From assembly GCA_951406725.2 (NCBI GenBank), contig OX597823.1:14570001-14634000 (forward strand): a stretch of DNA of 64,000 bases, written 5' to 3'. How positions within the stretch are numbered: position 1 is the first letter of the stretch; each line of letters starts with the position of its first letter. The stretch comes from Octopus vulgaris (lineage: Eukaryota). The position numbers and the translations under genes were made by a program. Positions 3,784 through 60,456 of this stretch are shown here, in pieces. The notes below the pieces were generated by a model. It saw only the letters and a program-made list of their open reading frames with translations. It did not search any database and had not been told where the DNA came from.

Positions 3784-3966
3784 ATCGAAAAATACCTTAG
3801 GGATGAAAACCCAGGTTCGATATTTCCGCAAGTCAACTGATGGAGGCTGAGGTGTATATCAGCCGAAACGTTGTGTTAACAACAAACAAGATGCGGACAA
3901 ATATCCGTCAAATGTAAATAATGTAAATAATGTACATGATTCCCCATCTCTTACATATAGAACTGT
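3784..3966 (+). mobile_element. PLE-type terminal repeat fragment with degenerate hammerhead motif (3832-3878)
   Basis: CTGATGG-A-GGCTGA-loop-TCAGCC-GAAAC-GTT-GTGTT; 3879-3925 has an inverted copy at 2848-2894. Confidence 0.6.
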
Positions 3967-4062
3967 ATGGTCGATAAGGGATAACCTGAAGTTAAGAGGT
4001 AGTATTTGCACCAACTGTAGTTTGCTCTAATGGTAGAAAATATCCCTCAGATCACACCTAAC

Positions 4063-4473
4063 GGATCTTTTCGGTTTGAACGAAAGTTTTTAACATAATT
4101 TCTAGGTAACTAAAAAATTTTAAACTTCGTATACTGGTAGAATGTGTTTATAAAACATCTTTTCTCTTGGCTTTATTAAAAAAATTCTATGGTTTGTAAG
4201 ATATTTGTTGTTGTTTTTTCTTCAATTTCTGCAATTTCAACCAATCAAATACGTCTATTGAGGCAAAAAAAAAACATTCTGTACCGTATGAATATGTCCG
4301 ACGTTTAAGAAACAGATTGGGTTTATTTATATTTGTGAAGAAAAAGATACCCTTCCCCCACCCCTAACCCTAAAACAGATTGAAATGCAGTAGATCGATA
4401 CTAGGGTCATAATTATGGGTGACAATTTCATGACACCGCTAGAAAAAAACTGCCGTTCAAACCGAAAATATTC
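4063..4473 (-). mobile_element. MITE family A, copy 2 (opposite orientation)
   Basis: Same TIRs with the interior reversed; TSD CACCTAAC (4055-4062) / CACCTTAC (4474-4481). Confidence 0.88.
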
Positions 4474-4673
4474 CACCTTACAATCTGAAAGCAAGCAAAG
4501 GCAGCATTAAGACGAGAAAAACGTAACTGTATACTCACATACACTTATGTATAAATATCCACCAACACATACACATACAATTACACAGCAACACACATAC
4601 ACATACATACATACACACAAACATTCATATATACTCATAGAAATAACAATGCCTATATGTACGCTGTGTATCC

Positions 4674-4765
4674 GCTCGTATAGCTCAGTCGGTGGAGCAT
4701 CAGACTTTCATAGGTTGACCTTAGAGGTTATCTGAGGGTCGCGGGTTGGAGTCCCTCTATGGGTG
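4674..4765 (+). pseudogene. tRNA-Lys(TTT)-like sequence with 19-nt intron and TTC anticodon; probable pseudogene
   Basis: GCTCGTA-TAGCTCAGTCGGTGGAGC-A-TCAGA-CTTTCA-[intron 4711-4729]-A-TCTGA-GGGTC-GCGGG-TTGGAGT-CCCTC-TATGGGT-G. Body matches eukaryotic tRNA-Lys(UUU); T-loop TTC>TTG and several G-T pairs in the acceptor stem. Confidence 0.8.
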
Positions 4766-4776
4766 TATATTCGTTT

Positions 4777-5470
4777 AAGGCGGCAAGCTTAGCGGTATTT
4801 CGTCTGTCTTTATGTTCTGAGTTCAAATTCCGCCGAGGTCGACTTTACCTTTCATCCTTCCAGTGTCGATAAATTAAGTACCAGTTACGCACTGGGGTCT
4901 ATGTAATCGACTTAATCCGTTTGTCCCCTCTATGTTTAGCCCCTTGTGGGCAATAAAGAAATAGGTATTTCGTCTGCCGTTACGTTCTGAGTTCAAATTC
5001 CGCCGAGGTCGACTTTGCTTTTCATCCTTCCAGTGTCGATAAATTAAGTACCAGTTACGCACTGGGGTCTATGTAATCGACTTAATCCGTTTGTCCCGTC
5101 TATGTTTAGCCCCTTGTGGGCAATAAAGAAATAGGTATTTCGTCTGCCGCTACGTTCTGAGTTCAAATTCCGCCGCAGTCGACTTTGCCTTTCATCCTTC
5201 CAGTGTCGACAAATTAAGTACCAGTTACGCACTGGGGTCTATGTAATCGACTTAATCCGTTTGTCCCCTCTATGTTTAGCCCCTTGTGGACAATAAAGAA
5301 ATAGGTATTTCGTCTGCCTTTACGTTCTGAGTTCAAATTCCGCCGAGGTCAACTTTGCCTTTCATCCTTCCGGAGTTGATAAATTAAATACCAGTTGCGT
5401 ACTGGGATCGATCTAATTGTCTGGCTCCCTCCCCAAACATTTCGGGCCTTGTGCCAAGAGTAGAAAAGTA
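4777..5470 (+). mobile_element. Concatemeric tRNA-derived SINE (family N), 170-bp internal units, Nin/Deu-like core
   Basis: GGTATTTCGTCTG recurs at 4794, 4964, 5134, 5304; B-box-like GAGTTCAAATTCC; core GCCTTTCATCCTT..GTCGATAAATTAAGTACC. Confidence 0.85.
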
Positions 5471-5619
5471 TATGTACGTTGTGTATACGTGTAAGAACAG
5501 ATTTATAGAAAGAGAAAGAGAAATAAATACAGCAGAGAGAGAGAGAGAGAGAGAGAAGAGCGTACGTATGGATATGCACTCACTCACACACATTAAGAGA
5601 AGCATATGCAGATTCACAC

Positions 5620-56619: not shown

Positions 56620-58660
56620 TACACTCGCACACACACACACATACATACATATTCACACGCGTACATTCATACATACGTACATGTATATATGTATACAAAC
56701 GAATATACGTATATACATATGTAACACATACATACGTACATACGGACGCATATCTATGTGTGTGTATGTATTTATATTTGTGTGTGTATATGTGTGTATA
56801 TATGTGTATATGTGTGTATATATATGTGTGTATTTATATATATCTATATAAATATGTATGTGTATACATGTATGTATGCATTTATATATATATATATATA
56901 TATATATATATATAGACACGCGCACTCATACATACAAACACATGCATACATACACTCACATACACGTAAATACATACATTCATATATAGACACATGTACA
57001 CAAATACATACATACACACATACACACATATATACATACATACGTACATACTTAAATACATGCATAAACGCATACACATATACATACATACATACACACA
57101 TGCATACATACATACATACACACATGCATACATACATACATACATACATACATACATACATACATACATACATACATACGTACATACGTACGTACATACA
57201 TACATACATACATACATACATACATACATACTTGCATGCATACATACATACATACATACATGCATGCATACATACATACATACATACATACATACATACA
57301 TACATACGAACATACATACATACACACACACACATACATACATACATACATACATACATACATACATACATACATATATACATACATACATACATACGAA
57401 CATACATACATACACATACATACATACATACATACATACATACATACATACATACATACATACATACATACATACATACATACATACATACATACATACA
57501 TACATATACATTTACGTACACACACAAGTACACACGAAAAGCGCACGTATACTCACACACTGTAAACACATACTCAAAAACATACACACACACACACACA
57601 CACCACACGCCACACGCCTCCCACCGACATACAATTGCGTCTATGAACGTCACTTCAAGGCAGTACCTAATTTTTTTCTTTCCGAAATTGCTTGCGGAAA
57701 AAGCCAGGAGCCGGCAGGCATCAGCCGACATACATGACGGTGGGGGGGGGGCATTTTCGAGTGGCTTACTTCTCTCTTCTCAACCCTATTATTAAGGGCT
57801 TGTTGGCAGATGTGCTGATAAGGGTATTATATATATATATATATATATATATATATATATATATATATATATATATATATATATATATATATATGTATGT
57901 ATGTATGTATGTATGTATGTATGTATGTATGTATGTATGCATGTATACATAAACGTACGCGTACACGCACGTGCATATATACACACGTATTTGTGCGTAT
58001 GTGTATGCATATATATATTAGTTAATTTTGTGTATTCATATTTGCATGTGTATATATAGGATACAGCTTTTTCTTCTCTTCTACAAACACACACACACAC
58101 ATACTAACATATATGTGTGTGTTTGTATGTGTGTGTATACATGCACATATCTATCTATCTCTCTATCTATTTATCTATCTATCGATATATGTATATATAT
58201 ATATATATACATATATACATACATACATACTAACATACATACAAACATACATATATACATACATACATACAAACATACATATATACATACATACATATAT
58301 ACATAAATACATATATACATACATACATCCATACATCCATACATGCATACAAACATAAATACATACATACACTGGAACGTATGCACGTATGTACGTATGT
58401 ATGAATTTATGTATGCAAGTATGTATGTATATATGTATGTATGGATGTATGTATGGATGTACGTATGTATGAATATATGTATGTATGTATGTATGTATGT
58501 ATGTATGTATGTTTGTATGTATGTATGCAAGTATGTATGTATATATGTATGTATGGATGTATGTATGGATGTACGTATGTATGAATATATGTATGTATGT
58601 ATGTATGTATGTATGTATGTTTGTATGTATGTTTGTATGTATGTCTTTGTATGTATGCAT
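56620..58660. repeat. (TACA)n/(TATG)n/(TA)n microsatellite cluster with a unique island at ~57620-57827
   Basis: Direct reading. Confidence 0.92.
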
Positions 58661-59710
58661 CTGTAAGCCCTGTGCAATTTTACCCTCCAAGCACTCTGCC
58701 CCCGAATAACAGAAAAAAAAGGGAAATTGAGGGTAAAACTCAATCATATTGGGAGTTGGCAGACCCCAGGGATTGGCTGAGCGTTAGGGGAGAGATTATA
58801 GTAGGGATAAACGCATGACCAGAGTAGAATGATGTGTGGAAGTGTTGAGGTCATGGTCGCAGGTTCGAACTGTTGTCGGATCCTCTTAGGATTTCGGTCA
58901 GAACTTGAAGAGAGGAATTTATTATGATGAAGATAATCATTAAGATTAAAAGTAATTTAAGTTCGTGTTCCAGTTCGTCAACTCCCCTCCTCTTCCTTTC
59001 CCTCCTCTTCCTTTCCTTCCTTCTTCTATTGCTTCTATTTCTGCCACTGCTTCTGCTACTGTAGCCACCACCACCACCACCACTACAACAACAACAACTA
59101 CTTCTACTACTACTACTACTACTACTACTACTACTACTACTACTACTACTACTTTCACCTCCCTCATCTTATCATCGTCATCATCATCAACTTCATCATC
59201 AACTTCCTCATCACCATCATTTTTTTTACTTTTGCTTCCCTTCCTCCTCCCCATCATCATCATCATCATCATAGTCGTCGTCGTCATCATGACAAATATC
59301 ACCCTCTTCTACTTCCATCGTTATTATTGTCCCTGCCGTCTTCTTTATCACTATGATAACAGCTGCTGCCATGTGCTCATAGCTTGGTGCACGTAACCCA
59401 GAGACACCCACTCTACAAAATGCTTCAGCTATAGTCAGGGAGGTGAATGACCTCGCAGCCTGAAAACAGGACGAACGAGGTTTTGGGGATATTTTTTTCT
59501 CAACGCAGAGTAATTTTCCCAAACACGTGCGAACACTGTAATGGAACGATAAAAAGTACAACACTGCACGAAGTGCAGCTGTCTTGCTCTGATCGAATTC
59601 ACCTTGTTCGTCTCCGCTGTAACACTGGCCGCCAATAGATCCAGCGAATGTCCGAAAATAAAACTGTACAGCGGAGAGAATACAATATACGTATGTATAT
59701 ATATATATAT

Positions 59711-59899
59711 ATACCAGTGGTAGAGTAATATACTTTATTTAAAGCAGCAGAAAATTCAACAAAACCTGTTACTCTGAGTTTCCCGTTGCCGTTCATCGGA
59801 CAGTTTTTGGTAGATGAACGGCAACGGGAAACTCAGAGTAACAGGTTTTGTTGAATTTTCTGCTGCTTTAAATAAAGCATATTACTCTACCACTGGTAT
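59711..59899. repeat. Fold-back repeat (87-bp arms, 15-bp spacer) with hammerhead-like motif at 59766-59803 (-)
   Basis: 59711-59797 pairs with 59813-59899; minus strand CTGT-CCGATGA-ACG-GCAA-CGG-GAAACTC-A-GAGTA-ACAG. Confidence 0.88.
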
Positions 59900-60016
59900 T
59901 TGAGTACTCTTTTTTCCACCTTGTTTCACATTTATGTGTTTACTCCGGAATATATATATATATAATATGAGGGAATATTATTCCAAACTTACAGGGAAAA
60001 ATTCAATATGTAAATT

Positions 60017-60196
60017 GAAATAAAAAGGGTGAAAAATTAAATATTAATTTGATTAATATCAATTTAAAACCAGAGGTCATTCCTCTTATATGTATATAAT
60101 ATAATTTTCTGAATCTTCACATTTTTCAATATGCAAGGCCACTGGTTTTAAATTGATATTAAGCAAATTAATATTCAATTTTTCACCCTTATTATT
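60017..60196. repeat. Imperfect inverted repeat (~60-bp arms)
   Basis: AAGGGTGAAAAATT...AATTTAAAACCAG versus CTGGTTTTAAATT...AATTTTTCACCCTT. Confidence 0.8.
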
Positions 60197-60420
60197 TAAA
60201 CATACATACACACACATACACACAAACATACACAAACACATGCATACAAACGCACACACATACACACACACACATTCACCCATATACACACACATCCACA
60301 CATATACACACACACATACACAGAAACACACACACAAACACACTCACATACACACACAAATTGGGCCACTTAACTCAACACGTTTTTTTTCATTTTCTCT
60401 CTATTTATTTCCTCTCATTC

Positions 60421-60456
60421 CTTTCTGTCGAAGAGCGTAGGCTCGAAACGTAAAAG
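60421..60456 (+). ncRNA. Degenerate minimal hammerhead-like motif
   Basis: CTTT-CTGTCGA-A-GAGC-GTAG-GCTC-GAAAC-GTA-AAAG (A6 substituted). Confidence 0.45.

Follow-up and report, generated by a model that had tools for sequence, protein, structure and literature searches.

Minimal type-I hammerheads and a rearranged hammerhead core in a repeat-rich 64-kb window of the Octopus vulgaris genome

The window described here is the whole 64,000-nt stretch of Octopus vulgaris contig OX597823.1 (assembly GCA_951406725.2) from 14,570,001 to 14,634,000, forward strand, and all coordinates below are positions within it. Its composition is 37% G+C, with abundant microsatellites and repeats, and it holds decayed coding remnants of Penelope-like elements (PLEs) together with two kinds of hammerhead ribozyme motif: 11 copies of minimal type-I hammerheads at 10 loci, in seven sequence families, and a repeat with six copies (family G below) in which the parts of the hammerhead follow each other in a different order. 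With a probability of roughly 0.65, we take the type-I loci to be the 3′ tails (pseudo-long terminal repeats, pseudo-LTRs) of 5′-truncated PLE insertions, predicted to cut only as dimers, and family G to be a rewired hammerhead core that likely forms the tail of an element of Naiad type.

Type-I hammerheads and their surroundings

Both strands were scanned with a strict type-I descriptor, using 40 block-wise dinucleotide shuffles as the control, and with a looser, scored type-I scan controlled by 30 shuffles. The strict descriptor found four core-intact motifs (13429-, 24438+, 39821- and 46566+) versus 0.025 per shuffle, and seven with at most one core change (adding 24037-, 45383- and 60421+) versus 1.0 per shuffle; the looser scan found five motifs scoring at least 9 versus 0.07 per shuffle, with the 44417 motif ranked first. 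The bare word CYGANGA is not enriched (36 observed, 40 expected); the signal is the complete hammerhead layout. Four further candidates, at 2524, 7882, 25115 and 26014, scored at chance level in the looser scan and were dropped. A repeat-rich, low-complexity window could in principle yield such motifs by chance; hits with one or two core changes do arise in shuffles at the rate just given, and the 3832 motif taken alone is at chance level (looser-scan score 5.2). Against this stand the number of intact motifs, the family majority that restores the core, and the conservation of the motif relative to its flanks described below. We give this explanation almost no weight, and for the motif set as a whole a chance origin is refuted.

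A preliminary description of this DNA, made from the letters alone, had reported hammerheads in ten coordinate ranges. The sequence it quoted is present in all of them, and the descriptor-versus-shuffle comparison that it proposed, run within the window, passes 7 of the 10 positions; among the remainder the 44417 core is intact, while 59766 and 3832 are damaged. In the Rfam check that it also proposed, no Rfam 15 hammerhead model reached its gathering score anywhere in the window, where the sole match was a tRNA, and at E ≤ 5 hammerhead models were absent among the 150 of 313 matches listed, which were dominated by microsatellite matches to miRNA models. Its general picture, several families of PLE-type minimal hammerheads whose palindromic stem III pairs fully only in a dimer, is borne out by computed pairing. 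Stem III is short and palindromic, as described, but its sequences had been misassigned: with stem III bounded by A15.1 and U16.1, it is ACGT, not AACGTT, at 3832 and in the family that we call A, and ACATGTGT/ACATATGT at 24438/24037, not ACATGT.

The type-I core (C3-A9, G12-A15.1, U16.1 and H17) is intact in 7 of the 11 copies (13429, 24438, 39821, 44417, 46566, 59766 and 61384), and the other four (3832, 24037, 45383 and 60421) each carry a single core change. Stems differ among the seven families while pairing is kept, save for mismatches at 59766 (10.1-11.1) and at 3832 (two, in stem I).

Family A comprises four copies. That at 39821-39859(-) has an intact core (with C at position 4) and an extra A after A9, and lies in a 231-bp unit (39736-39966) amid microsatellites; that at 45383-45417(-), in unit 45287-45509, belongs to a very abundant subfamily and has a private A15.1G change; that at 46566-46601(+), core-intact, lies in unit 46494-46712, with (TA)n between the unit and a PLE open reading frame (ORF); and that at 60421-60456(+), in unit 60359-60545, carries A6U and an outer stem I pair changed from G-C to C-G. 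The damaged hammerhead at 3832-3877(+), whose end had been put one letter too far, at 3878, has A9G and the same extra A, and lies in the long arm of a head-to-head pair: a motif-less inverted copy of the tail behind it (3879-3932) lies at 2841-2894(-). A tRNA-headed short interspersed nuclear element (SINE) is a possible origin for the 3832 family.

The core-intact hammerhead at 13429-13582(-) has an 8-nt palindromic stem III, and a (TA)n run enlarges its loop II; an inverted copy of the tail behind it (13243-13344) is found at 14761-14862(+), across a LINE-like (long interspersed nuclear element) piece at about 13980-14690. A 586-bp palindrome at 23985-24570 (arms 23985-24272 and 24283-24570) carries a core-intact motif at 24438-24518(+) and its counterpart with G12A at 24037-24117(-). 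Amid microsatellites, the 230-bp unit 44353-44582(+) holds the motif 44417-44477(+), with one additional C ahead of GAA and 6 of 9 stem III pairs, between inverted arms (44354-44413 and 44451-44510) and with an extension of about 70 nt on the right only. The 237-bp unit 59714-59950, amid (TA)n runs, holds 59766-59803(-), a motif of Hydra-clade layout in which stem II opens with an A-G mismatch and whose proper register both scans missed; its arms are 59711-59797 and 59813-59899, the second ending within the core, and about 50 nt extend on the right only. The last type-I motif, 61384-61428(+), was absent from the preliminary list and was picked up by the looser scan; it is core-intact, with a 6-bp stem I and a dimer stem III pairing 6 of 8. 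Ten letters of its stem II recur in the stem II of a PLE relative (L016, below), it has no inverted arm, and its 5′ side has no microsatellite nearby.

These units are delimited by (TA)n/(CA)n, and units of at most 300 bp bounded by microsatellites, a class making up 15.6% of non-microsatellite bases, contain 6 of the 11 motif copies. An inverted copy of the 3′ part faces the 5′ end in 5 of 6 loci outside family A and in 0 of 4 family A copies; the first two of these inverted pairs, at the 3832 and 13429 loci, are interrupted by other repeats. Truncation points vary and do not coincide with the cleavage site, every copy spans its predicted site, and the window holds no direct tandem array of any type-I locus. 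For PLE insertions, strong 5′ truncation, an inverted truncated copy, a one-sided tail and a (TA)n bias have been described (PMC8557442), and minimal motifs are reported to be mostly single, probably truncated PLE ends, with opposite-strand pairs 100-700 bp apart (PMC4209133). The one-sided extensions at 59766 and 44417 exceed the 30-40 bp published for PLEs.

The likeness extends to the motifs, whose layout is that of the consensus in print for metazoan PLE hammerheads. Like those of PMC4209133, the type-I loci have CUGANGA followed by one extra nucleotide, G10.1-C11.1, a 4-nt palindromic stem III and U-rich flanks, and, as there, motifs are mostly single, some form opposite-strand pairs, many families share a genome and dimer cleavage is predicted. 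Hydra-clade PLEs likewise have (TA)n targets and a palindromic stem III of 8-9 nt: 59766 and Hydra-2_aMil have both strands of stem I, both arms of stem III and the site nucleotide in common, and 13429 and 44417 have a stem III type found in the Hydra table (PMC8557442). No Hydra ORF came up in the window, none being looked for. A hammerhead from an Octopus bimaculoides PLE, Hydra-1_oBim, is already in print (PMC8557442, File S2); the six window motifs searched for did not occur in that paper's supplement, nor did Octopus in the supplementary files of PMC4209133 that were searched (all but one). The density of 11 type-I copies per 64 kb looks to be above the totals in print, which reach about 9,000 per genome, though a single window does not scale to a genome. 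The type-I loci are likely of a known kind, PLE tail hammerheads, and in themselves add little, given that such tail motifs are known across animals and one octopus PLE case is in print.

Non-LTR retrozymes, which spread via small circular RNAs, would be another source of type-I motifs, and their monomers occur dispersed through other genomes (bioRxiv 10.64898/2026.07.22.740005). The window contains none of the 150-450 bp tandem repeats with type-I motifs by which retrozymes are defined, and its inverted pairs, extensions on one side and flanking (TA)n are typical of PLEs; this origin is very unlikely for the type-I loci.

The fact that each copy spans its own cleavage site would mean that the template was uncut or re-joined RNA. 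This agrees with insertion of Poseidon_Ac, in which uncut RNA is the main template and hammerhead mutants still insert in vitro (PMC11167929). In the PLE-tail reading, master elements kept the motif by selection, as conservation relative to flanks shows, and a protein with reverse transcriptase (RT) and GIY-YIG domains would nick (TA)n-rich DNA and copy the RNA from 40-190 nt behind the site, a step suggested by PMC11167929 together with the ends observed in this window. Early stops in copying, often followed by an inverted second copy, would then have produced the anatomy observed. As mirror copies lie on opposite strands, they cannot serve as dimer partners within one transcript; most of the present type-I copies, decaying and with no same-strand neighbor, are probably silent.

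Family A permits a closer look at how the motif has been kept. Invariant columns make up 26 of 35 in the motif versus 26 of 119 in the flanks (p = 2e-8), with pairwise flank identity of 38-74%: selection acted on the motif during subfamily divergence. As to covariation of stems, which the preliminary description had put forward as a check for each family, one stem I pair is changed on both sides; stem II is invariant. Contigs from four public runs were mapped to 45292-45470 for depth, which is not copy number, and 17,725, 10,680, 4,163 and 970 of them mapped, the first two figures being from DNA runs. The other two runs, tentatively taken as RNA, are deeper 5′ of the site; neither this nor their cover counts here as evidence. 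Position 15.1 is A in 98-100% of this depth, where the window copy at 45383 has G. Variants of at least 5% in the motif fall at position 4, N7, G12 and 16.2 (both CpG), H17, 1.2 and 1.4, with none in stem II, and H17 is U, C or A, not G. Stem III forms 0 bp in the family A monomer and 4 of 4 pairs in the swapped dimer; in the types with 8-9 nt, pairing rises from 1-3 bp in the monomer to 6-8 in the dimer. Family A patterns had no match in viral or metagenome contigs, and the pattern of the 3832 tail had none in prokaryote genomes.

Family A, and maybe other families, could instead be dedicated short non-autonomous elements (solo pseudo-LTRs or SINE-like) that borrow a PLE protein, as non-autonomous PLE derivatives have been described (PMC8557442; bioRxiv 10.64898/2026.07.22.740005). 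All four copies are 187-231 bp long with microsatellites on both sides, which would fit such an element too, and the contig counts are very high; in two runs the loose ends reach TA-rich letters about 20-25 nt past 45462 (agreement 0.60-0.66). In the other two runs, the loose ends continue in non-repeat letters, the 5′ flanks are unequal (62-107 nt), strong 5′ truncation is normal for PLEs (PMC8557442), and no type-I locus is in tandem array. On balance we regard this alternative as unlikely, with appreciable weight all the same, and prefer truncated PLE tails. We also considered 39823 and 45383 as paired terminal repeats of one element flanking the PLE piece at 43337, an arrangement that we rejected, their flanks being 50% identical.

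Penelope-like coding remnants and their relatives

The largest PLE remnant is a decayed ORF at 46776-49105(+), with GFKF, DKG and RT motifs, a GIY-YIG domain at its C terminus, and many stops and frameshifts. Among the sequencing runs listed for the 46780-49450 stretch, none is an RNA run. An RT-thumb fragment at 43337-43716(-), whose homologs were found by HMMER search and not by word-based protein search, has its best matches in the same group as 46776. A possible GIY-YIG C-terminal fragment at 8866-9156(-) shows weak similarity (best E 0.25) and no Pfam match. The PLE alignment had no match in viral contigs.

We fetched 79 metagenome loci related to these PLEs (L001-L079), 60 of them with at least 150 nt 3′ of the ORF. 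In 24 of the 60, a sense hammerhead lies 69-520 nt downstream of the ORF, versus 0.05 in 20 shuffles; the other 36 gave no match. An RT-core tree was built from the window ORF 46776 and those 28 loci in which a sense motif was found beyond the ORF, the other 51 loci and the 43337 fragment (short cover) being excluded. A clade with bootstrap 100 unites the nine loci whose hammerheads combine an extra A with a 4-nt stem III; the 46776 ORF is not part of it and sits on a long branch, amid loci in which stem III is mostly 6 nt long. Among L001-L079 hammerhead layout follows the RT clade, non-clade loci having mostly 6-nt palindromes and some a U-U at stem II.

Since family A and 3832 share the extra-A, 4-nt layout and 46776 falls outside that clade, the parent of family A and 3832 is probably different from the 46776 element. 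No recognizable hammerhead was found 3′ of the 46776 ORF stop; a decayed one just past it (about 49112-49215) would need several changes, and its alignment with the hammerheads of L001 and L002 was unconvincing, so that it was dropped. The earlier proposal that the remnants at 8866, 43337 and 46776 belong to the elements that mobilized these motifs is not supported, in view of this clade mismatch, the lack of a recognizable hammerhead behind 46776, the placing of 43337 in the group of 46776 and the weakness of 8866.

Family G, a repeat with a rearranged hammerhead-like motif

Family G was traced from CUGANGA words outside the type-I motifs that recur in a repeat. Three of its six copies lie in a head-to-tail array of the form B-A-B-A-B at 21741-23560(+), in which B (373 bp) carries the motif and A measures 352 bp; the 725-bp units are 99% identical, (TA)n lies on both sides, and there is no long ORF. 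The motif of the first unit occupies 21957-22031(+), with cleavage predicted after A21979. From 5′ to 3′ it consists of a stem II strand (21957-21961), the 3′ strand of stem III (21972-21978), the site, the 3′ strand of stem I (21980-21984), a 6-nt linker, the other (3′) stem II strand (21991-21995), GAA (21996-21998), the 5′ strand of stem III (21999-22005), the 5′ strand of stem I (22020-22024) and, last, CUGAAGA (22025-22031), a form of CUGANGA. The second and third units carry it at 22682-22756(+) and 23404-23478(+), with predicted sites at 22704 and 23426, that is, 725 and 722 nt apart. A diverged copy at 24877-24950(+) (predicted site 24898) has a 1-nt gap in stem III, and for this reason the descriptor misses it; the most diverged, at 44032-44104(+) (predicted site 44053), has an intact core and two stem I pairs changed on both sides. 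The sixth, at 23737-23786(-), is cut at its 5′ side, within the 3′ strand of stem I.

Every core nucleotide of the hammerhead is thus present, in the order site, GAAA, CUGANGA, with a stem II partner that is upstream and off A9. A descriptor of this layout gives four matches at 18.4-21.0 (three of them the near-identical tandem units), all with intact cores, whereas the best of 60 shuffles reaches 15.4; a match of the permuted descriptor in L078 (15.4) equals that maximum and is not counted. In the six-row alignment, 93% of cells are paired versus 17-41% in slid controls, and three stem I pairs are changed on both sides among the four distinct copies. The upstream stem II strand pairs at -8.4 to -11.2 kcal/mol and is perfect in 5 of 5 full copies. 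A fourth duplex, a candidate for an extra helix joining stems I and II, is computed in each of the 4 copies at between -4.2 and -7.1 kcal/mol, with no control comparison. A nested RNAalifold fold of three copies missed the crossing helices and was set aside. The family G pattern met 10 loci in viral contigs, none with stems I and III together, which we treated as chance.

In the fold proposed here, stems I and III would cross as pseudoknots and so bring together CUGANGA, GAAA and the NUH site, while stem II would be built with the upstream strand and A9 would be unjoined to stem II. Self-cleavage is predicted from this layout: a single RNA copy would suffice for cutting, and the array would be cut at one site in each 725-nt unit.

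Two non-circularly permuted hammerhead types are the closest known relatives of this order. Type SGC, in which CUGANGA is followed within 2 nt by a stem II strand, cleaves in vitro, and the CSG order is validated as well; SGC was met solely in metatranscriptomes and CSG in two metagenomic sequences, neither in a known organism's genome (PMC10085705). Family G resembles them in its site-GAAA-CUGANGA order, crossing stems I and III, short stem I-II linker and full set of core nucleotides, and differs from SGC in that its best stem II partner is upstream of the site rather than within 2 nt after CUGANGA; the contiguous block C, defined by that spacing, has no match in family G. An alternative is that family G is a standard SGC hammerhead with a 5-nt bulge after A9, a downstream GGCU forming stem II and the upstream strand acting as an off-switch. 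Three of the 4 distinct copies do have GGC(U) 5 nt past A9, with a duplex of -4.2 to -5.6 kcal/mol, and the strand after it pairs next to stem I, as in SGC (PMC10085705). Yet the upstream strand pairs more strongly throughout, in the 44032 copy the downstream strand is gone (+0.8), Naiad_Anas and Naiad-2_Movir have no downstream partner by eye, and insertions at this place in SGC are of 1-2 nucleotides at most (PMC10085705). We think this alternative quite unlikely, and retain the rewired core with an upstream stem II strand.

As a head-to-tail array with one motif per unit and no long ORF, family G is like non-LTR retrozymes and non-autonomous elements of the Chlamys group, MRC1 among them; unlike retrozymes, its unit is 725 bp rather than 150-450 and its motif is not type I (PMC7229834; bioRxiv 10.64898/2026.07.22.740005). 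It also resembles the 3′ ends of Naiads, PLEs reported to lack canonical hammerheads, some ends of which are marked HHR_core or HHR_half_core with no fold given (PMC8557442). Like these, family G has GAAA ahead of CUGANGA near a T-rich 3′ end, a (TA)n target and head-to-tail copies. In the 34 Naiad 3′ ends partly visible in the supplement of that paper, parsed by eye and not by program, we find permuted hammerheads in 12. Six have the split layout of family G: Naiad_Obim, Ovul, Anas and 2_Movir, all with three helices matching those of family G, and two others, one of which forms stem II as a local hairpin. Another six (Nbra-1, -2, -3, Hcon, Hpol and Asuum) hold, by the same reading, a type-CSG hammerhead that is complete and has a long additional helix. 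The sequence of family G is not the same as that of the ends compared, and it is adjoined in the window by no Naiad ORF, for which an N-terminal GIY-YIG, a CxC motif and RT would be expected; layout and target make it likely that family G is a tail of Naiad type. One algal Chlamys 3′ end in the same supplement matches family G in 17 of 19 letters from CUGAAGA on, which may be chance (PMC8557442).

A further step would be that Naiads carry hammerheads hidden by non-circular permutation, nematode Naiads having type CSG, family G being an active monomer outside the six listed permutations, and the 725-bp array being non-autonomous and yielding unit-length RNAs by cutting its own transcript; to this fuller claim we give slightly less than an even chance. 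Alternatively, family G might be read as a non-catalytic, hammerhead-derived fold that the element's protein uses as a signal for binding or priming. Its A9 is detached from stem II, and in Poseidon_Ac hammerhead mutants were without effect on in vitro insertion and no RNA-seq ends lay at the site (PMC11167929); on the other hand, the five full window copies and the parsed Naiad ends have all preserved every core position and a nucleotide other than G at 17, which exceeds the needs of a fold alone. Such a non-catalytic role seems unlikely to us, if well short of negligible.

Several points weigh against the combined reading of PLE tails and a rewired Naiad-type core. Beside the uniform shortness of family A, active family A dimers have computed ViennaRNA energies of -6 to -11 kcal/mol versus -19 to -23 for the minimum-energy structures, and nowhere in the window do a motif and a PLE ORF form one continuous piece. 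The strict and the looser type-I descriptors were both composed with the motifs already known. The nested ViennaRNA fold of family G departs from the proposed one, its covariation comes from four distinct copies and from stem I only (stems II and III being invariant), and its shuffle control is mixed: 7 of 500 shuffles for cells changed, while 112 of 500 reach three two-sided pairs. The Naiad comparison was made by eye, with 22 of 34 ends, cut short or motif-free, giving no full parse, and our literature search met no test of a core with A9 detached from stem II. That search, thin on subscription papers, also found no print record of a link between Naiads and permuted hammerheads or of the family G order.

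The preliminary description had inferred for this genome a dense population of non-autonomous, ribozyme-bearing retroelements. The loci it listed can be explained by truncated 3′ ends of ordinary PLEs (PMC4209133; PMC8557442). The strongest candidate in the window for an element that is non-autonomous and carries a ribozyme is the 725-bp array at 21741-23560, missing from its list. Naiads are among the most abundant invertebrate PLEs, and their supposed lack of canonical hammerheads has served as an argument for the ribozyme being dispensable, one that falls if their tails hold permuted hammerheads. If true, non-circular permutations would move from anonymous metagenomic RNA to animal genomes, in high copy number, and the rule joining CUGANGA to stem II would become directly testable with a 100-nt transcript.

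Other repeats and genes in the window

Two further repeats have inverted structure. A family at 25089-25223, 25991-26122 and 26197-26321 has outward inverted arms and, in 3 of 3 copies, a hammerhead-like word that lacks G5 and scores at chance level. In a 180-bp palindrome at 60018-60197 no hammerhead was detected; it is possibly another inverted PLE tail.

The LINE ORF at 17650-20637(+) is open over about 995 amino acids, with apurinic/apyrimidinic (AP) endonuclease and RT domains (Pfam RVT_1, E 3e-32), and looks young. The LINE 3′ piece that divides the 13429 inverted pair (13980-14690, +) lies within a (TAA)n run and has no Pfam match; we take its endonuclease to be of REL type. A tRNA-like gene at 4673-4766(+), called selenocysteine tRNA (SeC) by ARAGORN and tRNA by Rfam (43.9 bits), has an intron-like insert in its anticodon loop and immediately precedes a 170-bp tandem of a dispersed repeat. 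A satellite of about 10 kb fills 27391-37804, with self-match offsets mainly at multiples of 26 bp, and an element resembling miniature inverted-repeat transposable elements (MITEs) is present in three copies of 400-440 bp (913-1318, 4058-4471 and 7989-8431), each with terminal inverted repeats of 28-29 bp.

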